Source: an uncultured Roseicyclus sp. (GTDB lineage Bacteria; Pseudomonadota; Alphaproteobacteria; Rhodobacterales; Rhodobacteraceae). From it: a stretch of 64,000 nt of DNA. The notes beneath the pieces are model-generated. The model was not told the origin of the DNA. It saw nothing but the letters and a program-made list of their open reading frames with translations, and ran no database searches. Shown piece after piece: positions 15,743 through 46,194 of this stretch (within the stretch, counting starts at the first letter, position 1; each line of letters begins with the position of its first letter). Both the position numbers and the translations under genes were made by a program. Location: assembly GCA_964578115.1 (NCBI GenBank), contig CAZOBK010000005.1, forward strand, positions 19,637 through 83,636, in the 5' to 3' direction.

Positions 15743-15749
15743 GCTTGCC

Positions 15750-20330: not shown

Positions 20331-20347
20331 GATCGGAATTCCCGATC
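20331..20347. promoter_or_regulatory. LysR-type (T-N11-A) box GATCGG-AATTC-CCGATC
   Basis: Perfect 6-bp arms containing ATC-N9-GAT. It lies 12 nt upstream of the LysR start, in the region divergent from the DMGDH-like operon. Confidence 0.55.
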
Positions 20348-20437: not shown

Positions 20438-22885
20438 ATGGCCGACATTCCAGGGCATGCACGCGTGGTCATCATCGGTGGCGGGGTGGTCGGCGTCTCG
20501 GCGCTTTATCATCTGGCCAAAGCCGGCTGGACCGACTGCGTTCTTCTTGAAAAGAACGAACTGACGGCGGGCTCGACATGGCATGCGGCCGGCAACGTGC
20601 CGACCTTCTCGACCTCCTGGTCGATCATGAACATGCAGCGCTATTCGACCGAGCTTTATCGCGGACTTGGCGACGCGGTCGATTACGCCATGAACTACCA
20701 TGTGACCGGGTCGATCAGGCTGGGTCATTCGGACGAGCGCATGCAGGAATTCGCACGCGCCCGCGGCATGGGTCTCCACCAGGGGATGAGCCTCGAGGTC
20801 CTCGCGCCGGACGAGATCAAGGACAAGTATCCCTTCATCGAGACCCATGACATCAAGGGCGCGCTTTACGATCCTGCCGATGGCGACATCGACCCCGCGC
20901 AGCTGACGCAGGCGCTGGCCAAGGGCGCGCGCGATCTGGGCGCCATGATCCAGCGCTTCTGCCCCGCGACGGGGGTCAGCCGCGAGAATGGCGAGTGGAT
21001 CGTCCACACGGAAAAGGGCGACATCCGTTGCGAGATCGTGGTGAACGCCGCCGGTTACTACGCCCAGCGCGTCGGCGAGTGGTTCAAGCCCTATGGCGGG
21101 CGCACGGTGCCGATGATGGTGATGAGCCACCAGTACCTGATCTTCGACGAGGTGCCGGCGGTCCGCGACTGGTCGGAAAAGGTCGGCCACAAGCTGCCGC
21201 TGCTGCGCGACGTGGACGTGTCCTACTACCTGAGGCAGGAGAAGAACGGCTTCAACCTCGGCCCGTACGAGCGGACCTGCAAGGCGCACTGGGCCGATCC
21301 CTCCGACCCGATGCCGGAGGATTTCAGCTTTCAGCTCTACCCCGACGCGCTGGACCGCCTGTCCGTGCAGATCGAGGACAGCATGGCCCGCGTGCCGGTG
21401 CTGGCCGAGGCAGGGCTGGCGAAAACGATCAACGGCCCGATCCCCTACACGCCGGATGGCAACCCGCTTCTGGGGCCCATGCCGGGCGTGCCGAACGCCT
21501 TCGAGGCCTGCGTCTTCACCTTCGGCATCGCGCAGGGCGGCGGCGCGGGCAAGGTGCTGGCGGAGTGGATCACCGAAGGCGCGACCGAGTGGGACATGTG
21601 GTCCTGCGATCCGCGCCGCTTCACCGGCTATACCGATCACGAGTACTGCGTTCAGAAGGGGATGGAGGTCTACGCCCATGAATACGGCATGCATTTCCCG
21701 TGGCACCGCTGGCCCGCCGCGCCGGATCGCAGGGTCTCCCTGGTCCAAGATCTTGTAAAGGAACTTGGCGGTCAGATGGGCGCCTATGCCGGCTGGGAAC
21801 GCGCGAACTGGTTCGCGAAACCCGGCGACGACACGTCCGAGGAAGCGACACAGACCTGGAACCGAGCCGGCCCGTGGGAGCCGCGCATCCGCAAGGAATG
21901 CGAGGCGGTGCGCGACGGCGTGGGCGTGCTGGACCTGCCCGGGTTTTCGCGCTTCCACCTGACCGGCGAGGGCGCGGGCGAATGGCTGCTGGGCAAGATC
22001 GCGGGCGGACTGCCCAAACCCGGCCGCATCGCGCTGGCCTATTTCCCGGATCATCGCGGCCGCATCGTCACGGAGATGACCATCGCCTGCAACGGCGAGG
22101 ATGATTTCACGCTGATCACCGCGGCGACCGCGCAGTGGCACGATTACGAATGGCTGGCGCGCGACCTGTCCGAGGGATTGTCGCTTGCCGATCTTTCCGG
22201 CGATCTTTCGACACTGATCGTGACGGGTCCGCAAGCGCGCGATCTCTTCCATCAGGTGGGCACAGAAGCCGACCTTCACTTGCCGTGGCTCACCCACCAG
22301 TCGGCCATGGTGGCCGGGCGGCCCTGCACGCTGGCCCGCGTCAGTTTCGCCGGGGAACTGGGCTGGGAGGTACACGCCGCCAACTCGGAGATCCCCGCGC
22401 TTTACGGGGCGATCCTCGGCGCGGGGGCGAAGCCCTTCGGGATGTTCGCGCTGAACTCACTACGCATCGAAAAGGGCTACCGCGCGTGGAAGGGCGATCT
22501 TTCCACCGATTACAGCCTGTTCGAAGGCGGGCTCGACCGGTTCATCCGGTTCGACAAGCCGCAGGATTTCCCCGGCAAGGCGGCGCTTCTGGCAGAGAAG
22601 CAGCGCGGCGTGACGAAGCGTTTCGTGACGCTGACCGTGGACGCGGGCGCCGCCGACGCGCCCTACATGTCGACGCTCTGGCATGATGGCGCCGTGGTGG
22701 GCGAGACCACCTCGGGCGCATGGGGCTATCGCGTCGGAAGCTCCATCGCACTCGGCATGCTGCGCGCCGATCTGGCGGTGCCGGGAAATGCGCTGGAGGT
22801 CGACATCTTCGGCGACCGCCGCCCCGCCATCGTGCAGCCCGACGGCCCGCTGTGGGACCCCGGCAATGACCGGCTGAGGGCCTGA
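20438..22885 (+). CDS. FAD-dependent oxidoreductase with a C-terminal GcvT/THF-binding domain (dimethylglycine/sarcosine dehydrogenase family), paralogue 1
   Basis: 815 aa. VVIIGGGVVGVSALYHL FAD fold, STWHAAG (the covalent-flavin His context of DMGDH/SARDH), and a C-terminal aminomethyltransferase-like domain. GGGAGG RBS before ATG 20438. Confidence 0.85.
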   Translation: MADIPGHARVVIIGGGVVGVSALYHLAKAGWTDCVLLEKNELTAGSTWHAAGNVPTFSTSWSIMNMQRYSTELYRGLGDAVDYAMNYHVTGSIRLGHSDERMQEFARARGMGLHQGMSLEVLAPDEIKDKYPFIETHDIKGALYDPADGDIDPAQLTQALAKGARDLGAMIQRFCPATGVSRENGEWIVHTEKGDIRCEIVVNAAGYYAQRVGEWFKPYGGRTVPMMVMSHQYLIFDEVPAVRDWSEKVGHKLPLLRDVDVSYYLRQEKNGFNLGPYERTCKAHWADPSDPMPEDFSFQLYPDALDRLSVQIEDSMARVPVLAEAGLAKTINGPIPYTPDGNPLLGPMPGVPNAFEACVFTFGIAQGGGAGKVLAEWITEGATEWDMWSCDPRRFTGYTDHEYCVQKGMEVYAHEYGMHFPWHRWPAAPDRRVSLVQDLVKELGGQMGAYAGWERANWFAKPGDDTSEEATQTWNRAGPWEPRIRKECEAVRDGVGVLDLPGFSRFHLTGEGAGEWLLGKIAGGLPKPGRIALAYFPDHRGRIVTEMTIACNGEDDFTLITAATAQWHDYEWLARDLSEGLSLADLSGDLSTLIVTGPQARDLFHQVGTEADLHLPWLTHQSAMVAGRPCTLARVSFAGELGWEVHAANSEIPALYGAILGAGAKPFGMFALNSLRIEKGYRAWKGDLSTDYSLFEGGLDRFIRFDKPQDFPGKAALLAEKQRGVTKRFVTLTVDAGAADAPYMSTLWHDGAVVGETTSGAWGYRVGSSIALGMLRADLAVPGNALEVDIFGDRRPAIVQPDGPLWDPGNDRLRA

Positions 22886-22889
22886 GCCC

Positions 22890-25334
22890 ATGGCCGACCT
22901 CCCCACTCACGCCCGCGCCGTCATCATCGGTGGCGGCGTCTCGGGCTGTTCGGTCGCCTATCACCTGGCGAAACTCGGCTGGACCGACATCGTCCTTCTT
23001 GAACGCAGACAGCTGACCTGCGGCACCACGTGGCACGCCGCCGGTCTGGTGGGTCAGTTGCGCGGCACCCAGAACATGACGCGGCTGGCGAAGTACTCCG
23101 CCGATCTCTACGTCCGGCTCGAAGAGGAAACCGGCGTCGCCACCGGCATGCGGCAGGTGGGGTCCATCTCGCTTGGCCTGACCGCCGACCGGCGGGAAGA
23201 ATTGCTTCGTCAGGCCACGCTCGCCCGCGCCTTCGATGTGGAGGTGGGCGAGATTTCCACCGCCGAGGTCAAGGCGATGTATCCCCATGTGGAGGTCGGA
23301 GACATCACCTGCGCCGTGCACCTTCCCGGCGACGGGCAGTGCGACCCGGCCAATATCGCCATGGCGCTGGCCAAGGGCGCGCGGATGCGCGGCGCGCAGA
23401 TCTTCGAGGGCGTGAAGGTCACCGCCGTCAAGGACGATGGGAAGCGCGTCACCGGCGTCGACTGGGAGGCGAGCGGCGAGACCGGTCACATCGCGGCCGA
23501 CATCGTCATCAACTGCGGCGGCATGTGGGGCCGTGACCTGGCCGCGGGGTCCGGCGTGAGCCTGCCGCTTCATGCCTGCGAGCATTTCTATCTTGTAACA
23601 GAACCCATCGATGGCCTCGGGCATCTGCCGGTGCTCCGCGTCCCCGACGAATGCGCCTATTACAAGTCCGACGCAGGCAAAATGATGCTGGGCGCCTTCG
23701 AGCCGCGCGCGAAACCCTGGGGCATGTCGGGCATCCCCGAGGATTTCTGCTTCGATGCCCTTCCGGAAGATTTCGAGCATTTCGAGCCGATCCTCGACAT
23801 GGCCACCCGCCGCATGCCGATGTTCGAGACGGCGGGCATCCATACCTTCTTCAACGGCCCCGAAAGCTTCACCCCCGACGACCGCTACTACCTCGGAGAG
23901 GCGCCGGAGCTTGGCGGCTACTGGGTCGCGGCCGGCTACAACTCCATCGGCATCGTCTCCTCGGGGGGCGCGGGCATGGCGCTGGCGCAATGGATCGTGG
24001 ACGGCGAGGCGCCCTTCGACCTGTGGGAGGTCGACATCCGCCGCGCGCAACCCTTCCAGCGAAACCTGCGTTACCTGAAGGAACGCGTGACGGAAACCCT
24101 TGGCCTTCTCTACGCCGACCACTGGCCTTACCGGCAGGTCGAGACCGCGCGCGGCGTGCGCCGCAGCCCGGTCCATGAGCACCTGAAGCAGGCCGGCGCT
24201 GTCTTCGGCGAGGTCGCGGGGTGGGAGCGTGCGAACTGGTTCGCGGATCCGGGGCAGGCGCGCGAATACCGCTACGGCTGGCACCGGCAGAACTGGTTCG
24301 AGAACTCGCGGGCCGAGCATATGGCCGTGCGGCAGGGCGTGGGCCTTTTCGACATGACCTCCTTCGGCAAGATCCGGGTGGAAGGGCGCGACGCCGCCGC
24401 CTTCCTCAACCATGTCTGCGCCAACGAGGTCGGCGTGCCCGCCGGCCGCGTCGTTTACACCCAGATGCTCAACGCGAAAGGCGGGATCGAAAGCGACCTG
24501 ACCGTCACGCGGTTGAGCGAGACCGCCTTCCTGCTCGTCGTGCCCGGAGCGACGCTGCGCCGCGATCAGGCTTGGCTTCGTGCGCATGTCGGGAACCGTT
24601 TCGTGACGATCACCGACATGACCGCAGCCGAGGCCGTATTCTGCGTGATGGGGCCGAAGGCGCGAGATCTTCTACAGGATGCCAGCCCCGATGACCTGAC
24701 GAACGCCGCCTTCCCCTTCGGCACGGCACGCGAGATCGAGATCGGCATGGGGCTGGCCCGCGCCCACCGCATCTCCTACGTGGGCGAACTCGGTTGGGAG
24801 CTTTACGTCTCGACCGATCAGGCGGCGCATGTGTTCGAGGCTCTGACCGAGGCCGGAACGGATCACGGGCTCAAGCTCTGCGGTCTCCATGCGCTCGACA
24901 GTTGCCGTATCGAGAAGGCGTTCCGCCATTTCGGCCATGACATCACCGACGAGGATCACGTGCTGGAGGCAGGCCTCGGTTTCGCCGTGCGCACGCAGAA
25001 GCCCGATTTCATCGGCCGCGACGCGGTGCTGCGCAAGCGGGAGGCGGGGCTCGCCCGCCGCATGCTCCAGTTCCGGCTGACCGACCCCGAGCCGATGCTC
25101 TTTCACAACGAAGCCGTGGTTCGCGACGGAAAGATCGTCTCGATCGTGACCTCGGGAAATTACGGCCACGCGCTCGGCGGTGCGATCGGGATGGGCTACG
25201 TGCCCTGCTCCGGCGAAAGCGCCGAGGACGTGCTGGGCTCCACCTACGAGATCGAAGTGGCCGGCGTGCGCCACGCGGCGGAGGCCAGCCTGGCGCCGCT
25301 TTACGATCCGAAATCGGAAAGGGTGCGGATGTGA
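22890..25334 (+). CDS. FAD-dependent oxidoreductase with a C-terminal GcvT/THF-binding domain (dimethylglycine/sarcosine dehydrogenase family), paralogue 2
   Basis: 814 aa. AVIIGGGVSGCSVAYHL, TTWHAAG, and a GcvT-like C-terminal half. Starts 4 nt after the stop of paralogue 1. Confidence 0.85.
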   Translation: MADLPTHARAVIIGGGVSGCSVAYHLAKLGWTDIVLLERRQLTCGTTWHAAGLVGQLRGTQNMTRLAKYSADLYVRLEEETGVATGMRQVGSISLGLTADRREELLRQATLARAFDVEVGEISTAEVKAMYPHVEVGDITCAVHLPGDGQCDPANIAMALAKGARMRGAQIFEGVKVTAVKDDGKRVTGVDWEASGETGHIAADIVINCGGMWGRDLAAGSGVSLPLHACEHFYLVTEPIDGLGHLPVLRVPDECAYYKSDAGKMMLGAFEPRAKPWGMSGIPEDFCFDALPEDFEHFEPILDMATRRMPMFETAGIHTFFNGPESFTPDDRYYLGEAPELGGYWVAAGYNSIGIVSSGGAGMALAQWIVDGEAPFDLWEVDIRRAQPFQRNLRYLKERVTETLGLLYADHWPYRQVETARGVRRSPVHEHLKQAGAVFGEVAGWERANWFADPGQAREYRYGWHRQNWFENSRAEHMAVRQGVGLFDMTSFGKIRVEGRDAAAFLNHVCANEVGVPAGRVVYTQMLNAKGGIESDLTVTRLSETAFLLVVPGATLRRDQAWLRAHVGNRFVTITDMTAAEAVFCVMGPKARDLLQDASPDDLTNAAFPFGTAREIEIGMGLARAHRISYVGELGWELYVSTDQAAHVFEALTEAGTDHGLKLCGLHALDSCRIEKAFRHFGHDITDEDHVLEAGLGFAVRTQKPDFIGRDAVLRKREAGLARRMLQFRLTDPEPMLFHNEAVVRDGKIVSIVTSGNYGHALGGAIGMGYVPCSGESAEDVLGSTYEIEVAGVRHAAEASLAPLYDPKSERVRM

Positions 25335-26875
25335 CGACCGAGGTCGAAATCAAGAAAAGCCGCCGCGGCGGCGGGCGGGCGGCCCGTGTCGCCCTGCGCG
25401 CGGCCCCGCTGGCCGAGGACAAGCGCCCCGTGCGCCCCGGTCTGCAGGGCGGGCAATACGCGCCCCTGACCGAGGCCGGTGTCGCGCGCATCCATTGCGC
25501 CGCGATGGACGCGCTGGAGGTGGTCGGCCTGTCGCAAGCCCCTGAAAGCGGGGTCGAGATCATGACCGGGGCGGGCGCGATCCTCGGCGATGACGGGCGG
25601 CTGCGGTTTCCCCGAACGCTGGTCGAGGACATGGTCGACAAGGCGGCGAAGGCCTTTCCCCTCTACGGGCGCGATACGCGCCATCATCTCGATCTGTCCG
25701 GCACCCGTGTCCATTATGGCACTGCCGGCGCGGCGGTGAATGTCGTGGATATCGAAACGCAGAGCTATCGCCCCTCCACCGCGCGGGACCTCTACGACGC
25801 CGCGCGGCTGGCGCAGAACCTCGACAACATCCATTTCTTCCAGCGCACCATGGTCTGCTGCGAGATCCCGGATCTGGTGGAGATGGACATCAACACGCTG
25901 TATGCCTGTCTCGCCGGCACCACGAAACACGTGGGCACGTCCTTCTCCGATCCCGCCTCCGTCGATCCGGGAATGGATCTGATCCACATGGTCGCCGGCG
26001 GCGAGGAGGCCTGGCGCGCGATGCCCTTCGTGTCGCTGTCCAACTGCTTCGTCGTGCCTCCGATGAAATTCGCGACCGAAAGCTGCCTGACGATGGAGGC
26101 CTGCATCCGCGCTGGCATGCCGATCCTGCTACTGTCGGCCGGACAGGCCGGGGCCACCGCCCCCGCCCCGATCGCGGCGGCCATCGTGCAGGCGGTCGCC
26201 GAATGCCTCGCGGGCGTCGTCTATGTCAACGCCATGGCGCCCGGCCATCCGGCGGTCTTCGGAACATGGCCCTTCGTGTCCGACCTGCGCACAGGCGCCA
26301 TGTCCGGCGGGTCGGCGGAACAGGCACTCCTGTCGGCGGGCTGCGCGCAGATGCACCGGTTCTACGGCATCCCGGGCGGTGCGGCGGGCGGCATGACCGA
26401 CAGCAAGCTGCCGGACATGCAGGCCGGTTGGGAACAGGGCATCATCAACGTGCTGAGCGGCTTGTCCGGCCTCAACATGGTCTACGAATCCGTTGGCATG
26501 TATGCCTCGCTCATGGGCTTCTCGCCCGAGGGGATGGTTCTGGGCAACGACCTGATCGGACAGGCGCAACGCTGCGTGCGCGGTATCGACGTGACCGAGG
26601 ATTCCGTGTCGCTCGACGTGATGAAGGCCGTCTGCCTCGATGGCGGGCCGGGGCATTACCTCGGCTCCGACCAGACGCTCGCGCTGATGCAGACGGAGTA
26701 TCTTTACCCCGAGATCGGCAACCGCATGACGCCGAAGGATTGGGTTGAGGCGGACAAGCCGGACCTGATCGCGGCGGCGCGGCGGCGGATGGACAGCATC
26801 CTGCAACAGGCACCCTGCCAAGTACCGGTCGACGTGGACGCCGCTATCCGCGCAAGGTTCCCCATCAGATTCTGA
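25331..26875 (+). CDS. Non-pyrrolysine MttB-superfamily (trimethylamine methyltransferase family) protein, candidate quaternary-amine methyltransferase
   Basis: 514 aa. The N-terminal RRGGGRAARVALRAAP...RPGLQGGQYAPLTEAGVARIHCAAMDALE pattern is typical of proteobacterial MttB homologues. No in-frame TAG. The GTG start overlaps the upstream TGA (GTGA). Confidence 0.8.
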   Translation: MTTEVEIKKSRRGGGRAARVALRAAPLAEDKRPVRPGLQGGQYAPLTEAGVARIHCAAMDALEVVGLSQAPESGVEIMTGAGAILGDDGRLRFPRTLVEDMVDKAAKAFPLYGRDTRHHLDLSGTRVHYGTAGAAVNVVDIETQSYRPSTARDLYDAARLAQNLDNIHFFQRTMVCCEIPDLVEMDINTLYACLAGTTKHVGTSFSDPASVDPGMDLIHMVAGGEEAWRAMPFVSLSNCFVVPPMKFATESCLTMEACIRAGMPILLLSAGQAGATAPAPIAAAIVQAVAECLAGVVYVNAMAPGHPAVFGTWPFVSDLRTGAMSGGSAEQALLSAGCAQMHRFYGIPGGAAGGMTDSKLPDMQAGWEQGIINVLSGLSGLNMVYESVGMYASLMGFSPEGMVLGNDLIGQAQRCVRGIDVTEDSVSLDVMKAVCLDGGPGHYLGSDQTLALMQTEYLYPEIGNRMTPKDWVEADKPDLIAAARRRMDSILQQAPCQVPVDVDAAIRARFPIRF

Positions 26876-26893
26876 AAAGCGAAAGGACAGCCC

Positions 26894-27847
26894 ATGAAGG
26901 TCGCATTCATCGGCTTGGGCAACGTGGGCGGCAAGCTCGCCGGAAGCCTGCTGCGCAATGGCGCGGATCTTGCCATCCATGACCTCGACGCAAATCTTGT
27001 AACGGATTTCGTCGCGCGCGGCGCCACAGCGGGCGCCGACCCCGCCGCGATCATGCAGGCCGCCGATGTGGTCATCACCTGCCTGCCCTCGCCGGCCGCC
27101 TCGGACGCCGTCGTCACCGCGATGCTGCCCCATGTCGGCCCCGGCAAGACCTGGATGGAGATGTCGACGACTGATGCCGGGGAGGTCATGCGCCTCGGCG
27201 CCATGGTGGAGGCGGCCGGCGGCCGGGCGGTGGAATGCCCCGTCTCGGGCGGCTGCCACCGCGCCGATACCGGCAATATCTCGATCTTCGCAGGCGGCTC
27301 GCGCGAGGCGGTGGACCATGTCCTGCCGCTTCTGAAGCATCTCGGGCGGCGCATCCTGCACACCGGGCCGCTGGGCAGCGCGTCTAAGCTCAAGGTCATG
27401 ACCAACTACCTCGCCACGGTGAACCTCGTTTCGCTGTGCGAGGCGATGACCGTGATGAAGGCGGCAGGGATCGACCTCGCCACGACCTACGAGGCGATCC
27501 GCATCAGCTCGGGCACCTCCTTCGTGCACGAGACCGAGAGCCAGTTGATCCTGTCGGGCGCCCGGGACGTCAACTTCACCATGGACCTCGTCCAGAAGGA
27601 TATCGGTCTCTTTCAGAAGCTTGCCGATGACCATGCCGTGCCGCTGGAGATGTCGCCGCTGCTGATCGACATCATCGCCGACGGGCAGCGCCGTTATGGA
27701 GACCGCGCGCAATCCGATCGCATCATCGAACGGCTGGAGGAGGCGACGGGGCTTCAGATCCGGGCTGACGGTTTCCCCGAATTTCTTGTAGACTTGGAAC
27801 CTGAGGAAGAAGGCTACGAGGTTTTCAGGGGGTCGGATGAACGCTGA
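26894..27847 (+). CDS. NAD(P)-dependent 3-hydroxyisobutyrate / beta-hydroxyacid dehydrogenase-family oxidoreductase
   Basis: Rossmann motif MKVAFIGLGNVGG. 6PGDH-NAD-binding/HIBADH architecture with a ~30-aa acidic C-terminal tail. Confidence 0.8.
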   Translation: MKVAFIGLGNVGGKLAGSLLRNGADLAIHDLDANLVTDFVARGATAGADPAAIMQAADVVITCLPSPAASDAVVTAMLPHVGPGKTWMEMSTTDAGEVMRLGAMVEAAGGRAVECPVSGGCHRADTGNISIFAGGSREAVDHVLPLLKHLGRRILHTGPLGSASKLKVMTNYLATVNLVSLCEAMTVMKAAGIDLATTYEAIRISSGTSFVHETESQLILSGARDVNFTMDLVQKDIGLFQKLADDHAVPLEMSPLLIDIIADGQRRYGDRAQSDRIIERLEEATGLQIRADGFPEFLVDLEPEEEGYEVFRGSDER

Positions 27848-29264: not shown

Positions 29265-29270
29265 CGCCGA

Positions 29271-30692
29271 TCAGCCCCGTGGCTGGTTCAGCACCAGACG
29301 CGAGGGCCGCTCATGCGCCTGATGCGCGGCGACAAGCGCGCTTGCCCGGTCCGCCACCACGCCCTCGGGCGCCACGACGCGGCGGCTGGACAGGTCCACG
29401 TGCAGCAGCAGCGTCTCCATGGTCGCGGCAGGTGTCTCGCCGCCGGTCCAGAACCTGTGCAGCAGATGCAGCTTGCGCCCATCCCCACCCAGCGCCTGCG
29501 TGGTCACGGTGATGCTGTCGCCGATATCGATCTCGGCGAGGTAGCGGATGTGGTTCTCGGCCGTGAAATAGCTGAGCCCGCCCGCGATGTAATCCGCGTC
29601 CGCCCCGATCATCTCCATCAAGCGGTCCGAGGCCCGCGCGCCGACCTCCAGATACGGCGCCTCGTTCATGTGCCCGTTATAGTCGACGAAGGAGGTAGGC
29701 ACCTGCATCTCCAGGGTGACGGGCAAGCCGTCCGGTCCGGCGTCGGGCACACTCAGGGTTTTCTCATGGGCCGCGATCACGCCGCCCGCGCCGCTGCCGG
29801 TGCGCTTGAGCGCGCGCATCATCGCCACGAGGTTCTCGTCGCGCAGACGCTCCAGCGCGCGGATGCTCAGATGGCCCGATTGCGCGTCCGACTGCCCCGC
29901 GATCAGGTCGACAAGCGCGTCGTCGAACTCCGGCACGTCCATGAGCTTGGTCCAGGGCCATGTCAGGCAGGGACCGAACTGTTCGAGGAAATGGCGCATG
30001 CCCGCCTCGCCGCCCGCGATGCGGTAAGTCTCGAAAAGGCCCATCTGCGCCCAGCGCAGGCCGAAGCCCATGCGGATCGCCTCGTCGATCTCGGCGGTCG
30101 TCGCCACGCCGTCCTTCACCAGCCACAGCGCCTCGCGCCAGACAGCCTCGAGGAAACGGTCGGCGATATGGGCGTCGATCTCCTTGCGGACGGTCAGGGG
30201 GAACATGCCGATCCCGCGCAGGATGTCGGCGGCGCGCGCCGTCTCGCCCGCGTCGCCCACCAGCTCCACCAGCGGGAGCAGGTAGACCGGGTTGAACGGA
30301 TGCGCCACGATCACGCGGGCGCCGGTCCGGTTCAGCTCTGACGGTTTGAAACCCGAGGTGGAGGAGCCGATCACCGCATCGGCCGGGGCGGTGGCCGCGA
30401 TCTCGTCGTATACGGCATGCTTGATTTCAAGCCGCTCGGGCACGCTTTCCTGTATCCAGTCGGCGCCGGAGACAGCCTCGGCGATGGTCGTGTGCAAGCT
30501 CAGCGCGCCCTCGGCCGGCAAGGGCCGTTCGTAGAGCCCCGGCAGAGCGCGCCGCGCATTGGCCAGCACTTCGCGGATCTTGCGCTCCGCGTCCGGGTCG
30601 GGGTCGCAGACCGCCACGTCCCAGCCGTTGAGCAGGAACCGCGCGGCCCAGCCGCCGCCGATGACACCGCCGCCGATGATCGCTGCCTTCAT
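29271..30692 (-). CDS. lcdH: L-carnitine dehydrogenase with a fused C-terminal hotdog thioesterase domain
   Basis: 473 aa. 3-hydroxyacyl-CoA-dehydrogenase-type N-terminus MKAAIIGGGVIGGGWAARFL, plus a C-terminal ~150-aa thioesterase-like domain (VDYNGHMNEAPYL...). AAGGAG RBS. ATGA overlap with the upstream gene. Confidence 0.8.
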   Translation of the reverse strand: MKAAIIGGGVIGGGWAARFLLNGWDVAVCDPDPDAERKIREVLANARRALPGLYERPLPAEGALSLHTTIAEAVSGADWIQESVPERLEIKHAVYDEIAATAPADAVIGSSTSGFKPSELNRTGARVIVAHPFNPVYLLPLVELVGDAGETARAADILRGIGMFPLTVRKEIDAHIADRFLEAVWREALWLVKDGVATTAEIDEAIRMGFGLRWAQMGLFETYRIAGGEAGMRHFLEQFGPCLTWPWTKLMDVPEFDDALVDLIAGQSDAQSGHLSIRALERLRDENLVAMMRALKRTGSGAGGVIAAHEKTLSVPDAGPDGLPVTLEMQVPTSFVDYNGHMNEAPYLEVGARASDRLMEMIGADADYIAGGLSYFTAENHIRYLAEIDIGDSITVTTQALGGDGRKLHLLHRFWTGGETPAATMETLLLHVDLSSRRVVAPEGVVADRASALVAAHQAHERPSRLVLNQPRG

Positions 30693-31219
30693 GGTGATAT
30701 GCTCCTTTCGAGCCGCGCAAGGTCGTAGCCGTTGAAATCCAGAACCTCGCGCGCGGCGATCAGGCGATCCCGAGGGATCACAGGGTCGCGGTTCAGGATC
30801 CAGCCCGCGCGCCCGTCGGGCTGGCCCACGACGGCGGTACGATAGCCCTCGTCGATCCAGAGCACCCAGTAGGGCGCTGCGACGGGAACGCCGTCGAGCC
30901 GCACCGACAGCCGCCCGGGCCCGACCACCCGCGCGGTGCCGGCGATCTCGTCGATGACGTCTCCGTTGGCGTCGAGGCAGGTGTTCCGAACGAGGATTTC
31001 GCCGCCCTCGCCTTGCGCGTAGTCGACGACCGCGCCCGCGCAGCGCGCCTGAAACGGGTTGGGATAGCGCGCGACCTCGTACCAGCGGCCGAGGTAGCGG
31101 GCGGGGTCGAAATTGGCACTCGACGCGATGGTGACGGAGCGGTCGCGATAGCTGGGCGCGATGGCGCCGCACGCCGCAAGAAGGCCCGCGAGGCCGAGCG
31201 CAAGGAGCGTTCTGATCAT
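30689..31219 (-). CDS. blc: Bacterial lipocalin (Blc-like) lipoprotein
   Basis: 176 aa. Lipobox LLAAC after a signal peptide. Lipocalin motif RYLGRWYEVARYPNPFQ. ATGA overlaps at both ends. Confidence 0.85.
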   Translation of the reverse strand: MIRTLLALGLAGLLAACGAIAPSYRDRSVTIASSANFDPARYLGRWYEVARYPNPFQARCAGAVVDYAQGEGGEILVRNTCLDANGDVIDEIAGTARVVGPGRLSVRLDGVPVAAPYWVLWIDEGYRTAVVGQPDGRAGWILNRDPVIPRDRLIAAREVLDFNGYDLARLERSISP

Positions 31220-31980
31220 GGCGCGAGTGTCTCCGTATGTCCGTCGATGCATAGCGTCTGGCCCGAGATCTTCGCGCCTGCGGGCGAAGAAAGGTAATGC
31301 ACCATGTTGGCGACGTCCTCGGCATCGACCCAGCTGCGCAGCGACACACCCTTGACGTAGAGCGCGCGGATCTCTTCCTCCGGGCGGCCCTGCGCCTGGG
31401 CCTCCATCGCCACGACGCGGTCCATGCGCGGCCCCTGCACGGCGCCCGGCGCAAGCGCGTTCACACGCACGCCTGCCGGTCCCAGTTCCATCGCAAGCGT
31501 CTTCATCAGCCCGATGATCGCCCATTTCGAGGCGGAATAGGGGCTGCGGAACGGGTAGCCCGCGATCCCGGCGGTCGACGAGGTCAGCGTGATCAGCCCA
31601 TGCCCCTGAGCCCGCATCAAACGCGCCGCCCAGCGGCAGGTCAGGAACGCGCCATTCAGGTTGACCGCGACGCAGTCCTGCCACGCGCCGTAATCCAGCG
31701 TCTCGATCAACCCGGCGGGCCCGCCCGTGCCGGCATTGGCGCAGACCACATCGACCCGGTCCCAACTGGCCTCCACCAGCGAAAGGAACGCGTCAACATC
31801 GGCCTCGCGCGTGACATCCGCGACCCGCGCGATGGCGGCGGGATGGGCGCTCGCGAAATCCGCGACCGCATCCACGTCCACGTCGCAGATCGCGACCTCG
31901 GCGCCTTCGATGAGGAAGCGTTCGGCGATGGCGCGCCCGATGCCAGAGGCGCCGGCGGTGACGAGGACGCGCTTTGTCAT
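31216..31980 (-). CDS. Short-chain dehydrogenase/reductase (SDR) family oxidoreductase
   Basis: 254 aa. TAGASGIGRAIA cofactor motif and YSASK catalytic motif. ATGA overlaps at both ends. Confidence 0.85.
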   Translation of the reverse strand: MTKRVLVTAGASGIGRAIAERFLIEGAEVAICDVDVDAVADFASAHPAAIARVADVTREADVDAFLSLVEASWDRVDVVCANAGTGGPAGLIETLDYGAWQDCVAVNLNGAFLTCRWAARLMRAQGHGLITLTSSTAGIAGYPFRSPYSASKWAIIGLMKTLAMELGPAGVRVNALAPGAVQGPRMDRVVAMEAQAQGRPEEEIRALYVKGVSLRSWVDAEDVANMVHYLSSPAGAKISGQTLCIDGHTETLAP

Positions 31981-32891
31981 GCGGCGGGCGCGCGTTTGGT
32001 CAGGCCGAGCTTTTCGCGCACCTCCTGCGGCCCCATCACCCGCGCGCCCATGCCCTCGACCACGCCCACGGCGCGCTCCACCAGCTGCGCATTGGTCGCC
32101 AGCACGCCCTTCTCGAGCCACAGGTTGTCCTCCAGCCCCACGCGCACGTGCCCGCCTGCCAGCACGGCGGCGGCGGCATAGGCCATCTGGTGCCGCCCCA
32201 GTGAGAAGGCCGAGAATGTCCAGTCATCCGGCACGTTGTTGACCATCGCCATGAAGGTGTTGAGGTCGTCCGGCGCGCCCCACGGCACGCCCATGCAAAG
32301 CTGCACAAGCGCGGGTGCCTCCAGCACGCCCTCCTTCACCAGTTCCTTGGCGAACCAGAGGTGCCCGGTATCAAAGGCCTCGATCTCGGGCTTCACGCCC
32401 AGATGCGTCATCATCCGACCCATCGCACGCAGCATGCCCGGCGTGTTGGTCATGACGTAATCGGCCTCGGCGAAGTTCATCGTGCCGCAGTCGAGCGTGC
32501 AGATCTCGGGCAGGCACCGGGCGATATGTTCGACCCGTTCGGCCGCGCCGATCATGTCGGTGCCCGCCTCGTTCAGCGGCAGGGGCCGTTCGGTCGGGCC
32601 GAAGGTGATGTCGCCGCCCATGCCCGCGGTCAGGTTGAGGACCACGTCCACCTCCGCGTCGCGGATCCGGTCGGTGACCTCGCGGTAGAAGTCGAGCCGG
32701 CGGGACGGCGCGCCCGTCTCGGGATCGCGCACGTGGCAATGGACGATGGCGGCCCCTGCCTTGGCCGCGTCGATGGCGCTGTCGGCGATCTGCTGCGGGC
32801 TGCGCGGCACATGGGGGCTGCGGTCCTGCGTGCCGCCCGAGCCCGTCACCGCGCAGGTAATGAAGACCTCGCGGCTCATTTGAAGTGGCAT
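31977..32891 (-). CDS. BKACE-family (DUF849, 3-keto-5-aminohexanoate cleavage enzyme-like) beta-keto acid cleavage enzyme, candidate dehydrocarnitine cleavage enzyme
   Basis: 304 aa. FITCAVTGSGGTQDRSPHVP and IVHCHVRDPETG motifs of the BKACE TIM-barrel family. GGGAGA RBS before ATG 32891. Confidence 0.8.
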   Translation of the reverse strand: MPLQMSREVFITCAVTGSGGTQDRSPHVPRSPQQIADSAIDAAKAGAAIVHCHVRDPETGAPSRRLDFYREVTDRIRDAEVDVVLNLTAGMGGDITFGPTERPLPLNEAGTDMIGAAERVEHIARCLPEICTLDCGTMNFAEADYVMTNTPGMLRAMGRMMTHLGVKPEIEAFDTGHLWFAKELVKEGVLEAPALVQLCMGVPWGAPDDLNTFMAMVNNVPDDWTFSAFSLGRHQMAYAAAAVLAGGHVRVGLEDNLWLEKGVLATNAQLVERAVGVVEGMGARVMGPQEVREKLGLTKRAPAA

Positions 32892-32913
32892 GTCGTCTCC
32901 CTTTCCTTCGATC

Positions 32914-32954
32914 TTTCGTACGAAAAAACGCACGTGTGAATTTTCGTACGAAAA
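32914..32954. promoter_or_regulatory. Two copies of the palindrome TTTCGTACGAAA (candidate tandem operator) upstream of the BKACE operon
   Basis: TTTCGTACGAAA at 32914-32925 and TTTTCGTACGAAAA at 32941-32954, with centres 28 bp apart, in the AT-rich 67-bp gap between the caiD stop and the BKACE start. Confidence 0.6.
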
Positions 32955-32958
32955 TTCG

Positions 32959-33744
32959 CTATCGTCCCTTCCAGACCGGATCGCGGCCCTCGGCGAAGGC
33001 GCGCGCGCCCTCCAGCTGATCCTCCGAGCGATACAACCGTTCCACGGTCTCGAACTGGCTGCGCGTGATCCGGTTCAGCGCGTCATTGAACTTCATCGCC
33101 TCCGCCTCGCGCACGATCTCCTTGATCGCGGCGAAAACCAGCGGCGGCCCGGCGGCCAGATCATCGGCCATCTTCCGCGCGGCGTCCATCAACTCGGCCC
33201 CGGGCACGACCCGGTTCACAAGGCCCCAGCGCGCGGCCTCCTCCGCGTCGAACCAACGGCCGGTGAACAGAAGCTCCATGGCGATGTGATAGGGAATCCG
33301 CTTCGGCAGCTTGATCGAGGCCGCATCGGCCACCGTCCCGGACCGGATTTCCGGCAAGGCGAATGTCGCGTGCTCGGCGACGAGGATGATGTCGGCGCAC
33401 AGCGCCAGTTCCAGCCCGCCGCCGCAGGCGATCCCGTTCACCGCCGCGATGACGGGTTTGTTGAGGCCGCGCAGCTCCTGCAACCCGCCGAAGCCGCCCA
33501 CGCCGTAATCGCTGTCCGGCGCCTCGCCCCCGGCGGCGGCCTTCAGATCCCATCCGGGGCAGAAGAACTTTTCGCCCGCCCCGGTCAGAATGGCGACCCG
33601 CAACTCCGGGTCGTCGCGGAATTCGGTGAAGACCTCGCCCATGATCCGGCTGGTCGGCGCGTCGATGGCGTTGGCCTTGGGCCGGTCCAACGTGACCTCC
33701 AGCACCGCGCCGCGGCGCGTCGTCTTGACGGGGGTATCGGTCAT
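32959..33744 (-). CDS. caiD: Carnitinyl-CoA dehydratase / crotonobetainyl-CoA hydratase (crotonase family)
   Basis: 261 aa. Collinear with my recollection of E. coli CaiD (LDRPKANAIDA..., AGEKFFCPGWDLKAAA, C-terminal AFAEGRDPVWKGR). ATGA overlap with the upstream ligase. Confidence 0.85.
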   Translation of the reverse strand: MTDTPVKTTRRGAVLEVTLDRPKANAIDAPTSRIMGEVFTEFRDDPELRVAILTGAGEKFFCPGWDLKAAAGGEAPDSDYGVGGFGGLQELRGLNKPVIAAVNGIACGGGLELALCADIILVAEHATFALPEIRSGTVADAASIKLPKRIPYHIAMELLFTGRWFDAEEAARWGLVNRVVPGAELMDAARKMADDLAAGPPLVFAAIKEIVREAEAMKFNDALNRITRSQFETVERLYRSEDQLEGARAFAEGRDPVWKGR

Positions 33745-35780
33745 GGCATCTCTCCAAGTCTGATCAGGGCATCGACCGCAACGGCGCGGTCGGGCGTCAC
33801 GATGAGCGGGTTGACCTCCAGCTCGGTAAGCGTGTCGGCATGGGCCGTGGCACAATCCTGCACCGCAAGGATGGCCGCGACCAGCGCCGCGCGATCCGCG
33901 GCTGGCCGCCCGCGATAGCCGCCCAGAAGCGGCGCGATACGCAGCAGGTCGAGCGCGGCGTCGATCTCGGCCCCCGTCGCGGGCAAAAGCAGGGACACGG
34001 TGTCGTCCAGCATTTCGGCCAGCACACCGCCCGCGCCCAGCGTCAGGACGAAACCATGCGCCGGGTCGCGCAGAATGCCGACGATGATCTCGGCCACGCC
34101 GTCCGTGATCATCTCCTCGACAAGGTATCGCGTGCCGCCCATCCGCTCCGCCGCCGCCCCGACCGTCTCGGCATCGGCGAGGTTCAGCGCCACCGCGCCC
34201 GCCTCGGTCTTGTGCGCGAGGCCCAGCGCCTTGACCACGACGGGAAAGCCGATCTCGGCGGCGCGGGCCGCCGCCTCGGCGGGGCTCGCCGCCTCCGCCC
34301 CTTGCGGCACGGGCACGCCATGTCCGGCGAGCAGCGCCTTGCCCTCGGCCTCGCTCAGAAGACGCGCCGCCACCGGTTCGGGGCCGGGGACCAGTGGGGC
34401 GGCCGCCGCGTCCACCCGCCCAAGCCGCACAGCGGCCTCCAGCGCGGCCAGCCCCTCGGCGAACCCCGAGAGGGGCACGACGCCGCGCGCCAGCATCGCC
34501 TGCGCGATCGCCTCCGGCATGGTCTCGGTCAGGCTCGACAGGATCGCCATGGGAATGCCCGTCTCGGCGGTCGCATCCGCGCAGGCATCGATCACGATCT
34601 CCCATGCGCTCGGGTCGCAGCGGTCGGGCCGCGGAAAGTCGATGACCGCGACACCGATGGCGATATGCGGCGCCAGCATCGCGGTAAAGACCCGCGCCAG
34701 CGCCGCCCGGTCGCCCCAGATGTAGGTGTGGTAATCCAGCGGGTTGGCCAGGGCCACCTTGGGTCCCAGCGCCACGCGCAGGCCCGTGCGCTGTTCCTCG
34801 GTCAGCGGCGGGCATTCCAGCGCGCAACCCGCCACCATGTCCGAGATGATCCCCGCCTCGCCGCCCGAGCTCGACAGGACGCCGATGCGGCCCGAGGGCA
34901 ACGGGCCCATGCCGTGCAGAAGCTTCAGCGCCTCCAGCATCTCGGCGGGGCTTTTCACCCGCGCCATGCCCAGCCGGTCGAACAGCGCACGTGCGCCCGC
35001 ATCGCTGCCGGCAAGCGAGCCGGTATGCGACAGCGCCGCCGCGCGCGCGCCCTCCGACACGCCGGATTTCAGCACCACTATGGGCTTGCCCAACGCGCGG
35101 GCCCGCTCGGCCATGGCGATGAAGGCGGCAAGGTCGCCCACGCCCTCGACATGCAGGCCGAGTGCCGTGACGCGCGTGTCCTCAAGAAGTCCCTCGGCGA
35201 TCTCGGGCAGGCCGGTCTGCGCCTGGTTGCCGACCGTCACGACATAGGCCAGCGGCAGGCCGCGCGCCTGCATCGTCAGGTTCAGCGCGAGGTTCGAGGA
35301 TTGCGTGACGATGGCGACACCCCGCTCGACACGCTCGCCGCCGTGCTGGTCCGGCCAGAGCGCCGCCCCGTCAAGCAGGTTCAGGAATCCGTAGCAGTTC
35401 GGCCCGAGGATGCGCATGTCGCCCGCCGCCGCGACCAGTGCCGCCTCGAGCGCGGGTCCGTCCCCGGTCTCCGAAACCGACTCGCGGAATCCAGACGCGA
35501 AGCAGACGGCACCCCCCGCGCCCATGGCCGAAAGCCCGTGCATGACCTCGATGCTTGTCTCCCGGTTCACGCCAATGAAGGCCGCGTCCGGCGCCTCGGG
35601 CAGCGCGTCGACCGATGGAAACGCCGCAACGCCAGCCAGTTCGCCCTTCGTCGGGTGCACCGGCCAGACCGGCCCGGCATAGCCTACCCGCCGGCAGCCC
35701 TCGACAACTGCGGCGCACCACGTTCCGCCGCCGACCACGGCGATGGAACGCGGACGCAGAAGGCGCGACAGCGGCTGCAT
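33741..35780 (-). CDS. ADP-forming acyl-CoA synthetase (CoA-binding, succinyl-CoA-ligase-like and ATP-grasp domains); candidate gamma-butyrobetaine/crotonobetaine-CoA ligase
   Basis: 679 aa. CoA-binding N-terminus PRSIAVVGGG...VWPVHP. C-terminal ATP-grasp segment (EAEGKALLAGHGVPVP...GFPVVVKALGLAHKTEAG). Start ATG 35780 lies 1 nt after the upstream stop. Confidence 0.8.
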   Translation of the reverse strand: MQPLSRLLRPRSIAVVGGGTWCAAVVEGCRRVGYAGPVWPVHPTKGELAGVAAFPSVDALPEAPDAAFIGVNRETSIEVMHGLSAMGAGGAVCFASGFRESVSETGDGPALEAALVAAAGDMRILGPNCYGFLNLLDGAALWPDQHGGERVERGVAIVTQSSNLALNLTMQARGLPLAYVVTVGNQAQTGLPEIAEGLLEDTRVTALGLHVEGVGDLAAFIAMAERARALGKPIVVLKSGVSEGARAAALSHTGSLAGSDAGARALFDRLGMARVKSPAEMLEALKLLHGMGPLPSGRIGVLSSSGGEAGIISDMVAGCALECPPLTEEQRTGLRVALGPKVALANPLDYHTYIWGDRAALARVFTAMLAPHIAIGVAVIDFPRPDRCDPSAWEIVIDACADATAETGIPMAILSSLTETMPEAIAQAMLARGVVPLSGFAEGLAALEAAVRLGRVDAAAAPLVPGPEPVAARLLSEAEGKALLAGHGVPVPQGAEAASPAEAAARAAEIGFPVVVKALGLAHKTEAGAVALNLADAETVGAAAERMGGTRYLVEEMITDGVAEIIVGILRDPAHGFVLTLGAGGVLAEMLDDTVSLLLPATGAEIDAALDLLRIAPLLGGYRGRPAADRAALVAAILAVQDCATAHADTLTELEVNPLIVTPDRAVAVDALIRLGEMP

Positions 35781-35781
35781 C

Positions 35782-36942
35782 TCAGGCGCCGAGCGGCCGG
35801 AAGAGCTCGCGGCCGATGATATGGCGCTGAATCTCGGACGTGCCGTCCCAGATCCGCTCGACCCGCGCATCCCGCCAGAACCGTTCGATCGGAAAGTCCG
35901 ACATGAGCCCCATGCCACCGAAAATCTGCAGCGTGGTGTCGGTGACCCGCGCCAGCATCTCGCTGGCGTAAAGCTTGGCACTCGCGATCTCCCGGTTCGC
36001 GGGCAGGGCCTGATCCAGCCGCCACGCGGCGGACAGCGTGAGCCAGTCGGCGGCGTCGATCTCGGTGATCATGTCGGCGACCTGGAAGCTCACGCCCTGG
36101 AACTTCGCGATGGGCTGGCCGAACTGCTTGCGCTCGGCGGCATGGGCGACGGCGTGATCGAAGCAGCGCCGCGCCCGGCCCACGGAATTGGCCGCGACGG
36201 TCAGGCGCGTCGCGTAAAGCCAGGTGTTCATCACATCGAACCCGCCATCGACCTCGCCCAGCACCTGGGCGTCGGGCAAACGACAATCATCGAATTCGAG
36301 GATGCAGTTCTTGTATCCCCGGTGGCTGACCGAGGCATAGCCGTCGCGGATGGTGAACCCGGGATGCCCGCGATCCACGAGGAAACAGGTGATGCGCTTC
36401 TTCGGGCCCTTGGGAGTGTCGTCCACGCCGGTGGCCACGAAGACGATGACGAAATCGGCATGGTTCGCGCCCGAGATGAAGTGCTTCGTGCCGTTGACGA
36501 CCCAGTCGCCGCCATCGCGCACGGCCGTGCAGGCCATGCCGCGCACGTCCGATCCCGCCTGCGGCTCGGTCATGGCGAGCGCGTCCATCCGCTCCCCGCG
36601 CACGGCGGGGAAAAGGTAACGCTCCTTCTGGTCGCCCTCGCAGGCCATGAGGATGTTCTGCGGCCGCCCGAAGAAATGCGTGAGCGCCATCGACCCTCGC
36701 CCAAGCTCCCGTTCGACCAGCGTGAAGTCGAGTTGGCCCAATCCCCCGCCGCCGACCTCCTCGGGAAAGTTGCAGGCGTAGAAGCCCATCTCGATGACCT
36801 TGCGCTTGATCTCCTGCGCGAGCTCTTCGGGCACCTCGCCGGTGCGCTCGACCATGTCCTCATGGGGGTAGATCTCCGTCTCGACGAAGTCGCGGACCGT
36901 CGTGACGATCATCTCCTGTTCCGGGCTCAGCGCGAAATCCAT
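35782..36942 (-). CDS. Acyl-CoA dehydrogenase (candidate gamma-butyrobetainyl-CoA dehydrogenase)
   Basis: 386 aa with ACAD N-terminal, middle and C-terminal domain order (AMTEPQAGSD, ...IWDGTSEIQR). Start at ATG 36942 behind a GGGAGGA RBS, not at the TTG at 36963. Confidence 0.85.
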   Translation of the reverse strand: MDFALSPEQEMIVTTVRDFVETEIYPHEDMVERTGEVPEELAQEIKRKVIEMGFYACNFPEEVGGGGLGQLDFTLVERELGRGSMALTHFFGRPQNILMACEGDQKERYLFPAVRGERMDALAMTEPQAGSDVRGMACTAVRDGGDWVVNGTKHFISGANHADFVIVFVATGVDDTPKGPKKRITCFLVDRGHPGFTIRDGYASVSHRGYKNCILEFDDCRLPDAQVLGEVDGGFDVMNTWLYATRLTVAANSVGRARRCFDHAVAHAAERKQFGQPIAKFQGVSFQVADMITEIDAADWLTLSAAWRLDQALPANREIASAKLYASEMLARVTDTTLQIFGGMGLMSDFPIERFWRDARVERIWDGTSEIQRHIIGRELFRPLGA

Positions 36943-37152
36943 GGCATCCTCCCTGTTGGTCAAAGTGCTATGCCCGACCCGTTGCCCTTATCATGCAGCA
37001 ATGCACGCTGATCATGCAGAAATCGCAGATTTTGATCGCGGCGCAAGCCCGTGGTGATCACGTCGCGCAAAGAACCGGCAAAGATCGTTTTCCGGTTCCA
37101 TCCCGTGCTCCTGCGGATTTCGCAATCGCGTGTTTGCAGCTATGTCGAAGGG

Positions 37153-41593: not shown

Positions 41594-41600
41594 TCCGTGT

Positions 41601-41632
41601 CGGCGCGGGTGGGGGTTGCCCCGTCCGCGCCG
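41601..41632 (+). other. Stem-loop CGGCGCGG...CCGCGCCG after the NMT1-like SBP gene
   Basis: 8-bp outer stem with an inner GGGG/CCCC extension, in the 101-nt gap between the SBP and ATPase genes. Confidence 0.45.
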
Positions 41633-41694
41633 GACCCAACAAGGTGGCGGCGGGGCATGTCCCGCCCTGCGCGTCCTTTCAGCGTCCGTGAGCC

Positions 41695-44626: not shown

Positions 44627-44651
44627 CCGAAGACGACCTGACGAGGATCAC

Positions 44652-46067: not shown

Positions 46068-46133
46068 GAGGCTTCGTTGCCTTCGGCGACAACGGTTTCA
46101 GGCGTGTCTCGCCGCGCAAGCGCGACGACCGCG

Positions 46134-46185: not shown

Positions 46186-46194
46186 AGGGGCACG

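Follow-up and report, generated by a model that had tools for sequence, protein, structure and literature searches.

A putative gamma-butyrobetaine/carnitine-to-glycine gene block with an MtgB2-type MttB-superfamily methyltransferase in an uncultured Roseicyclus

We analysed a stretch of 64,000 nucleotides from an uncultured Roseicyclus sp. (Rhodobacteraceae; assembly GCA_964578115.1, contig CAZOBK010000005.1, positions 19,637 to 83,636 of the forward strand; henceforth the window), concentrating on a 16.5-kb block at positions 20438-36942 that encodes a non-pyrrolysine methyltransferase of the MttB superfamily among enzymes of carnitine and methylglycine metabolism. The best explanation of this block is that it forms a quaternary-amine catabolic island of two convergent, translationally coupled operons. 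With a probability that we put at roughly 0.6, the methyltransferase, which is of the MtgB2 type, starts the demethylation of glycine betaine together with a corrinoid protein whose gene lies outside the window, two flavoenzymes finish the demethylation, and the adjoining carnitine operon supplies the betaine. Both halves of this pathway match published routes, and the block is a compact new example and not a new kind of system. Three published pieces (i.e., the CoA-dependent route to betaine, the cobalamin-dependent first demethylation and the tetrahydrofolate-linked later demethylations) meet here in a single 16.5-kb stretch, which therefore offers a convenient test system for the MtgB assignment, so far made from proteomics and homology.

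Genes were chosen by the G+C content of their third codon positions (overall G+C varies between 63% and 72% along the window) and then checked against Pfam and NCBIfam profiles. None of the open reading frames (ORFs) of the block has an internal stop, and all genes are intact. Junctions between adjacent genes are tight (4-nt overlaps or gaps of no more than 25 nt), so that the block consists of two convergent operons, with 6 nt between their stop codons. An earlier reading of the same DNA from its letters and ORF translations (the sequence-only reading) had proposed two convergent gene blocks that line up as one chemical pathway. Both blocks are real, the domain assignments and coordinates it gave were borne out gene by gene by the profiles, and the logic of its three steps (CoA-dependent conversion of gamma-butyrobetaine or crotonobetaine to carnitinyl-CoA, of carnitine to glycine betaine, and of dimethylglycine to glycine) fits the domain content of both operons. 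Its inventory was right for the genes that it named, while four others had been passed over: a HIBADH-like dehydrogenase, an aldehyde dehydrogenase (ALDH), a lipocalin and a short-chain dehydrogenase (SDR). It had also described the block as free of transporters, with a LysR gene as its sole regulator; within the 16.5 kb this holds, as neither a transporter nor a second regulator was found there. A scan for promoters and terminators returned signals at or below the expectation from shuffled sequence and was thus uninformative.

The plus-strand operon encodes, in this order, a dimethylglycine dehydrogenase (DMGDH)-like enzyme, a second enzyme of the DMGDH or sarcosine dehydrogenase (SARDH) type, the MttB protein, the HIBADH-like dehydrogenase and the ALDH, and it is preceded by a divergently transcribed LysR-family regulator (19414-20319, minus strand; HTH_1 and LysR_substrate domains). 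The 118-nt intergenic region between the regulator and the first enzyme gene contains a perfect palindrome, GATCGGAATTCCCGATC (20331-20347), which, as read from the sequence, is a candidate LysR box of the T-N11-A type. The first enzyme (henceforth DAO1; 20438-22885) is a fusion of a FAD-dependent amine dehydrogenase and a GcvT folate domain, and it aligns with the rat and human DMGDH structures 4PAB and 5L46 at 545 bits. The second (DAO2; 22890-25334) scores 461 bits against DMGDH and 391 bits against the dimethylglycine oxidase 1PJ5. Both have the four-domain architecture (DAO, FAO_M, GCV_T and GCV_T_C) of the mammalian dimethylglycine and sarcosine dehydrogenases, and dimethylglycine and sarcosine may be divided between the two in either way. 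The methyltransferase gene follows (25331-26875; PF06253, 336.6 bits), beginning with a GTG codon and overlapping the DAO2 stop by 4 nt. The operon is completed by the genes of a HIBADH-family NAD(P)-dependent dehydrogenase of the beta-hydroxyacid type (26894-27847; NAD_binding_2 and NAD_binding_11) and of a NAD(P)-dependent ALDH (27837-29264; Aldedh, 487.7 bits). The former reached no NCBIfam equivalog cut-off, and the latter lies near the betaine-aldehyde and aminoaldehyde types while being an equivalog of neither (394 bits against the betaine aldehyde dehydrogenase model, below its cut-off of 669). Comparison of these two proteins with sequences of the Protein Data Bank gave generic family matches only, and the neighbourhood of an ALDH homologue on a Rhodovulum plasmid was uninformative.

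The minus-strand operon comprises an acyl-CoA dehydrogenase (ACAD), an ADP-forming CoA ligase, an enoyl-CoA hydratase, a BKACE, the SDR, the lipocalin and a carnitine dehydrogenase (CDH) fused to a thioesterase. The fusion protein (29271-30692; 3HCDH_N, 3HCDH and 4HBT_2, the last of the betainyl-CoA thioesterase type) passes the NCBIfam L-carnitine 3-dehydrogenase model NF005716 (704.6 bits against a cut-off of 592). The BKACE (31977-32933; PF05853, 337.6 bits) shares this operon with the CDH gene, and the two are also paired on Leisingera and Paracoccus plasmids; a megablast search of plasmids gave matches of only approximately 79% to the CDH/BKACE pair, in Leisingera, which places the window in Rhodobacterales. 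The BKACE would convert dehydrocarnitine and acetyl-CoA to acetoacetate and betainyl-CoA. The best NCBIfam match of the hydratase (32959-33744; ECH_1, 216 bits) is crotonobetainyl-CoA hydratase (CaiD, NF002936), at 347.6 bits against a cut-off of 500. The ligase (33741-35780; CoA_binding_2, Succ_CoA_lig and ATP-grasp_5) is a single polypeptide and by context would be a betaine:CoA ligase of the BcoAB type. Likewise by context, the ACAD (35782-36963, with a possible alternative start at 36942; four ACAD domains; 187 bits against the CaiA model, whose cut-off is 540) would convert gamma-butyrobetainyl-CoA to crotonobetainyl-CoA; its orthologue in the related locus L001 has 386 amino acids. Between the CDH fusion and the BKACE lie the Blc-like lipocalin (30689-31219; Lipocalin_2, 62.7 bits against the Blc subfamily), also present in L001, and the SDR (31216-31980; adh_short and adh_short_C2), which is kept in L001 and L009. 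The SDR reached no NCBIfam equivalog cut-off; 3-hydroxybutyrate dehydrogenase and D-carnitine dehydrogenase are candidate functions. In L001 a DUF1203 gene on the opposite strand (15449-15916 of that locus) separates the CDH gene from the lipocalin gene. As the window has no such gene, the minus-strand operon has been remodelled recently.

The genes and their intactness, the arrangement in operons, its conservation and the placement of the proteins in families and clades are observed; the substrates, the corrinoid dependence and the regulation we infer, and the steps would run as follows. Enzymes of the minus-strand operon would activate gamma-butyrobetaine or crotonobetaine to the CoA ester, which would be dehydrogenated and hydrated to carnitinyl-CoA and carnitine. 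Carnitine would then be oxidised to dehydrocarnitine, cleavage with acetyl-CoA would give acetoacetate and betainyl-CoA, and hydrolysis of the latter would release glycine betaine. The plus-strand operon, presumably under the control of the divergent LysR protein, would strip off the three N-methyl groups. MttB would remove the first from a quaternary amine, which is most likely glycine betaine, and pass it to the Co(I) of an MtgC-type corrinoid protein encoded elsewhere in the genome. From there it would travel to homocysteine or, by an enzyme of the MtgD type, to tetrahydrofolate. The two DMGDH/SARDH-type flavoenzymes would oxidise dimethylglycine and sarcosine, their GcvT domains delivering the one-carbon units to tetrahydrofolate, with glycine as the product. 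Our best guess for the HIBADH-like protein and the ALDH is that they may form an accessory alcohol-to-aldehyde-to-acid module feeding in a choline-like amino alcohol.

The gamma-butyrobetaine half of this scheme has a close parallel. A pathway from gamma-butyrobetaine through L-carnitine to glycine betaine was reportedly described in Sinorhizobium meliloti by Bazire and colleagues in 2019, and the gene content of the minus-strand operon appears to match it. The dehydrogenase/thioesterase of S. meliloti is bifunctional (PMC12482172), and BcoAB is its gamma-butyrobetaine:CoA ligase (PMC8364193). Judged by enzyme families, the two systems share the same clustered set of families, the CDH-thioesterase fusion and the ADP-forming ligase; the window differs in that its ligase is fused into a single polypeptide, the SDR and lipocalin genes are inserted, and the block has neither a transporter nor a dedicated regulator. 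The cdhCAB, dhcAB, gbcAB, dgcAB and soxBDAG genes of Pseudomonas aeruginosa specify the same carnitine-to-glycine chemistry, again through dehydrocarnitine, BKACE and glycine betaine. There, the betaine is attacked by a Rieske oxygenase that releases formaldehyde, and the later steps are carried out by DgcAB and a heterotetrameric sarcosine oxidase. By contrast, no Rieske oxygenase, DgcAB or heterotetrameric sarcosine oxidase is present in the 64-kb window.

This leaves the step from glycine betaine to dimethylglycine, for which the sequence-only reading had found no classical enzyme in the block and had placed a non-pyrrolysine MttB homologue instead. The absence stands, and the protein is indeed a non-pyrrolysine MttB homologue. 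Betaine-homocysteine methyltransferase (BHMT), a Rieske oxygenase and any B12-binding protein are absent not merely from the block: none was found among the window ORFs scanned or in six-frame motif scans of the 64 kb. The PF06253 domain covers residues 12-507 of the 514-residue MttB protein, i.e., its full length, and the residue that aligns with the pyrrolysine (Pyl; X) of Methanosarcina barkeri MttB (7XCL) is an ordinary methionine, M355, in an ORF without an internal stop. Its score against the equivalog model of Pyl-dependent MttB falls well below the cut-off (324 against 525 bits). Public records mostly annotate such genes as trimethylamine-corrinoid methyltransferase, a label that is almost certainly wrong.

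The window protein has thousands of relatives, the best of them in Rhodobacterales (84% identity in Roseicyclus and 82% in Lutimaribacter), and the closest named one belongs to Roseicyclus persicicus (84%). A search of 1.84 billion cluster representatives returned P0121 as the nearest, at 63% identity. We distinguish two clades among these proteins. Clade A, to which the window protein belongs, is made up of operon-embedded genes, whereas the genes of clade B, which includes P0121, are solitary and, in a Paracoccaceae metagenome-assembled genome (MAG) and in Ruegeria arenilitoris, lie in a neighbourhood of outer-membrane beta-barrel protein, MttB, EF-hand protein, B12-dependent ribonucleotide reductase and, further on, cold-shock protein. 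In Dataset S1 of the study of Ruegeria pomeroyi DSS-3 discussed below, SPO2133 is an outer membrane protein, SPO2134 is MtgB2, SPO2136 is a B12-dependent ribonucleotide reductase and SPO2140 is a cold-shock protein (PMC12478193). Because the order of the clade B neighbourhood matches these four loci, we identify clade B as the MtgB2 clade, an identification made by synteny. Clade A is the sister of clade B, with median identities of 67% between the clades and 75% within clade A (61-66% between the window protein and clade B). The gene guaA, which marks the neighbourhood of MtgB1 (SPO2108), was not found in the contexts of the representatives P0123, P0124, P0126 and P0127, and a GuaA-like protein was likewise absent from the related loci.

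The significance of this placement comes from R. pomeroyi, for which Mausz et al. (2025) described an aerobic, cobalamin-dependent glycine betaine demethylase, MtgBCD (PMC12478193). In this bacterium the corrinoid protein MtgC (SPO2160) is indispensable for the consumption of glycine betaine; growth on this compound depends on the pterin methyltransferase MtgD (SPO1863) as well. Glycine betaine, choline and carnitine induce two PF06253 proteins, MtgB1 and MtgB2, and with them CDH, DMGDH-type proteins, RamA, a DUF1638 protein and proteins of cobalamin synthesis. The corrinoid genes of R. pomeroyi are unlinked from its mtgB genes. Other marine bacteria often have the later demethylation genes close to mtgBCD (PMC12478193). 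The window resembles this MtgBCD(E) system in several respects: an aerobic Rhodobacterales host, a PF06253 protein in the role proposed for a betaine:corrinoid methyltransferase, no corrinoid gene beside it, and a link to the catabolism of carnitine and choline and to tetrahydrofolate-dependent later demethylations. Its MttB protein is 63% identical to the MtgB2-syntenic clade and has the same pocket residues. It differs in that the Ruegeria MtgB2 gene is solitary, whereas that of the window shares an operon with the genes of the two later demethylases, the HIBADH-like protein and the ALDH, has a LysR regulator gene beside this operon, and abuts a carnitine operon. Given that the window protein is sister to a clade syntenic with SPO2134, an aerobic MttB at the betaine step has already been described, and the expectation of the sequence-only reading that such a link would be a poorly described system has been overtaken by the 2025 publication (PMC12478193).

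To determine how widely the arrangement is conserved, we scanned species-representative genomes and found 80 orthologous loci (69-84% MttB identity), almost all in Paracoccaceae and Roseobacteraceae, with a few in Rhizobiaceae, Inquilinaceae and Geminicoccaceae. A metagenomic relative (L001/L002), with an MttB protein 91% identical to that of the window, carries the whole 16.5-kb arrangement; these two near-identical loci were left out of the mapped set, which comprises 81 orthologous loci (the 80 scanned and L003). MttB is immediately preceded by two DAO-GcvT genes in 51 of the 63 loci with enough upstream sequence, from Rhodobacterales to Rhizobiaceae, and a divergent LysR homologue is found upstream in 56 of them, so that LysR, the two DAO genes and MttB make up a recurrent module. 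It is this coupling to two DMGDH/SARDH-type genes that makes the first demethylation step, where the protein had originally been placed, its most parsimonious position. On the downstream side, 57 of 69 loci have a HIBADH-family gene and 32 of 69 an ALDH gene.

Carnitine genes are much rarer as neighbours: they lie no more than 10 kb from MttB in 3 of 81 loci, namely L004, L009 and L010, each differently ordered. Counting the window together with L001, the demethylation module thus lies beside carnitine genes in at least four lineages, and the different gene orders at L004, L009 and L010 argue for repeated selection of the juxtaposition. Other genes recur as additions to the operon. In 24 loci, in freshwater genomes of the Rhodobacter, Tabrizicola and Gemmobacter type, it ends with a cystathionine gamma-lyase gene (PRK07582, 510 bits against a cut-off of 440; e.g., L027, 13868-15028, and L031). 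In two loci (L013 and L015, 6631-7521; Seohaeicola and a related MAG) a 296-amino-acid homocysteine S-methyltransferase-like gene stands between the two DAO-GcvT genes, its product having a GGCC zinc motif and scoring 139 bits against PRK09485, under the cut-off of that model. These two kinds of insert are suggestive of a tie between the operon and the methionine/homocysteine node, as in the published model. A Zn-dependent alcohol dehydrogenase-like gene and a PEP-mutase/isocitrate-lyase-like gene were each found as operon inserts in 8 loci. Just upstream of the LysR gene, approximately 12 of the cystathionine gamma-lyase loci also carry the histidine-utilisation genes hutF and hutC.

Several observations weigh against the explanation preferred here. 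The only structurally defined MtgB is that of Desulfitobacterium hafniense, part of MtgB/MtgC/MtgA (structures 2QNE and 9YCE), which belongs to the same superfamily, has the same full-length TIM-barrel domain and lacks pyrrolysine; its host, however, is an anaerobe, and its gene adjoins those of a corrinoid protein and a tetrahydrofolate methyltransferase, neighbours that the window gene does not have. In sequence the window protein is equidistant between this MtgB (178 bits, 27% identity) and Methanosarcina Pyl-MttB (177 bits). From mutants and a structure with bound ligand, Picking et al. (2026) established how MtgB contacts glycine betaine: the quaternary nitrogen is held by Y97 and F356 and the carboxylate by R312 and H348, of which R312 is kept in all characterised non-Pyl members (PMC13080624). 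At the corresponding positions the window protein has G133, G350, E386 and L394, i.e., none of the four glycine betaine contacts of a D. hafniense-type MtgB. This pocket is invariant in 74 of 74 locus orthologues and in each of the 240 clade A and clade B sequences from databases, while the S. meliloti structure 4YYC retains the tyrosine, arginine and histidine. Since the MtgB contact residues are absent, glycine betaine as the substrate of this clade is still inferred from context and induction.

Further points weigh in the same direction. We know of no MttB-family protein from an aerobe that has been assayed or deleted. The assignment of MtgB1 and MtgB2 in R. pomeroyi is itself one of induction and homology (PMC12478193). 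No corrinoid protein (PF02310), pterin methyltransferase (PF00809) or RamA was found among the ORFs scanned or by six-frame motif scans of the 64-kb window, nor any B12-binding motif among the neighbours at 83 related loci. The specificities of the ACAD, hydratase and ligase are assigned by context, all three scoring below the NCBIfam equivalog cut-offs, and the conserved HIBADH-like and ALDH proteins have no role in a plain route from betaine to glycine. Two of these points can be regarded as leads: an aerobic clade without the betaine-binding residues of the anaerobe enzyme, and its usual coupling to an unexplained HIBADH-family dehydrogenase. Rhodobacterales of marine and fresh waters carry this gene family in great abundance, and either lead could change the substrate assigned to it.

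One way to account for both leads is that MttB acts on a quaternary amine without a carboxylate (e.g., choline), betaine from carnitine being left to another paralogue. The HIBADH-like protein and the ALDH would then oxidise dimethylethanolamine to dimethylglycine, which the two DMGDH/SARDH-type enzymes would convert to glycine, so that each of the five operon enzymes would have a step of its own. This would explain why a HIBADH-family gene so regularly follows MttB, even in the Yoonia type of arrangement, where LysR, MttB and HIBADH genes stand together and the DAO genes lie elsewhere, and a choline-dehydrogenase-like GMC oxidoreductase gene is found close to the operon in 9 loci. It also suits the pocket, in which an invariant glycine and glutamate replace the carboxylate-holding arginine and histidine of MtgB, and in which the positions of Y97 and R312 resemble those of the Pyl-dependent trimethylamine enzyme (G and Y). 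We nevertheless consider this alternative unlikely. The pocket is highly variable across the family, an arginine occupying the R312 position in only 5 of the 67 full-length representatives aligned, and its loss alone therefore neither excludes a carboxylate substrate nor proves a non-acidic one. Clade B has the same pocket and no HIBADH or ALDH neighbour, and the HIBADH-family genes at most loci are 40-47% identical to that of the window and may not be orthologues. We know of no aerobic route through dimethylethanolamine. Moreover, MtgB2 of R. pomeroyi is induced by glycine betaine itself (PMC12478193). A bolder form of the same idea, to which we give slightly less credence still, would extend it to the whole Rhodobacterales clade including MtgB2: none of these proteins would be a glycine betaine enzyme, the Gly/Gly/Glu/Leu pocket would receive a carboxylate-free methylated amine (e.g., choline or a different amino alcohol), and MttB with the HIBADH-like protein and the ALDH would form an undescribed aerobic, cobalamin-dependent route to dimethylglycine that bypasses betaine.

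It could also be that the two operons are independent and adjacent by accident, the plus-strand operon serving some other methylated amine. The operons are convergent with separate promoters and no common regulator, and at 78 of the 81 orthologous loci the surrounding 10 kb are free of carnitine genes. A chance neighbourhood is nonetheless improbable, because the modules occur together in several lineages in differing gene orders, one operon is expected to yield what the other consumes, and R. pomeroyi co-induces the same protein families on carnitine and glycine betaine (PMC12478193).

MttB might also, in parallel to the CoA-dependent route, act on carnitine or gamma-butyrobetaine itself, in the manner of MtcB and MtyB of Eubacterium limosum; the position of its operon beside the carnitine operon would suit this. 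The flavoenzymes would strip the remaining methyl groups from the nor-compounds, and the HIBADH-like protein and the ALDH would process the resulting hydroxy or amino acid. Replacement of both Y97 and R312 by glycine would enlarge the pocket, and carnitine, a beta-hydroxyacid, belongs to the substrate class of the HIBADH family. We regard this as very improbable: MtcB and MtyB keep R312 (PMC13080624), which the window clade does not, carnitine genes accompany the orthologue so seldom (3 of the 81 other loci), DAO1 is very close to authentic dimethylglycine dehydrogenase, and the complete CoA-dependent pathway next door would be duplicated.

Hardly credible, finally, is a corrinoid-independent MttB that passes its methyl group straight to tetrahydrofolate or homocysteine, for although no corrinoid gene was found in the window or at the 83 related loci checked and L013 and L015 have the homocysteine S-methyltransferase-like gene within the operon, every characterised member of the family, to our knowledge, methylates a corrinoid. 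MtgC is genetically required in R. pomeroyi, where its genes are likewise unlinked from mtgB (PMC12478193). Nothing points to the direct tetrahydrofolate link entertained by the sequence-only reading for its aerobic-type operon. Four other proposals were rejected. For trimethylamine as the MttB substrate, the pocket does resemble that of Pyl-MttB, but the partner enzymes would then have no sensible role; homoserine betaine (considered because of the cystathionine gamma-lyase of the 24 loci), trimethylaminoacetone and a route from gamma-butyrobetaine through GABA to succinate semialdehyde have chemical plausibility only.

More distant MttB paralogues were also seen. Two of them (P0124 at L090 and P0127 at L092), 41-44% identical, adjoin flavoenzymes with Oxidored_FMN and Pyr_redox_2 domains; the L090 context also includes a Rieske oxygenase, and that of L092 an AMP-forming ligase, a crotonase and an SDR. 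Both look like further uncharacterised methylated-amine pathways. The recurrence of MttB paralogues beside flavoenzymes suggests a general rule by which MttB takes the first methyl group and an adjacent flavoprotein the next.

Directly left of the LysR gene lies a DMSO-reductase-family operon (14780-19357, minus strand), with the same neighbours in L001/L002; it consists of a DmsC-like anchor (14780-15757) followed, by synteny with L001, by ferredoxin and approximately 955-amino-acid molybdopterin subunits. On the right, divergent from the ACAD gene, an 878-amino-acid protein (37051-39687, plus strand) combines a Na+/H+ exchanger with a C-terminal cyclic-nucleotide-binding domain, and a 79% homologue is found near the MttB orthologue in Yoonia (L006). 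Beyond it, an NMT1-type ABC transporter, an amidohydrolase and a FAD_binding_4 oxidase (40592-46067) lie upstream of two tandem NAD(P)H oxidoreductases of the flavodoxin-like fold and a 2OG-Fe(II) oxygenase (46183-48335, plus strand). Neither of the two candidates that these genes offered for the pathway was retained, as the oxygenase (47340-48335), considered as a butyrobetaine hydroxylase, is of the DIOX_N/PF03171 and not the TauD type, and the transporter (40592-43349) shows no link to betaines. The genes at 40592-48335 are a separate catabolic cluster.

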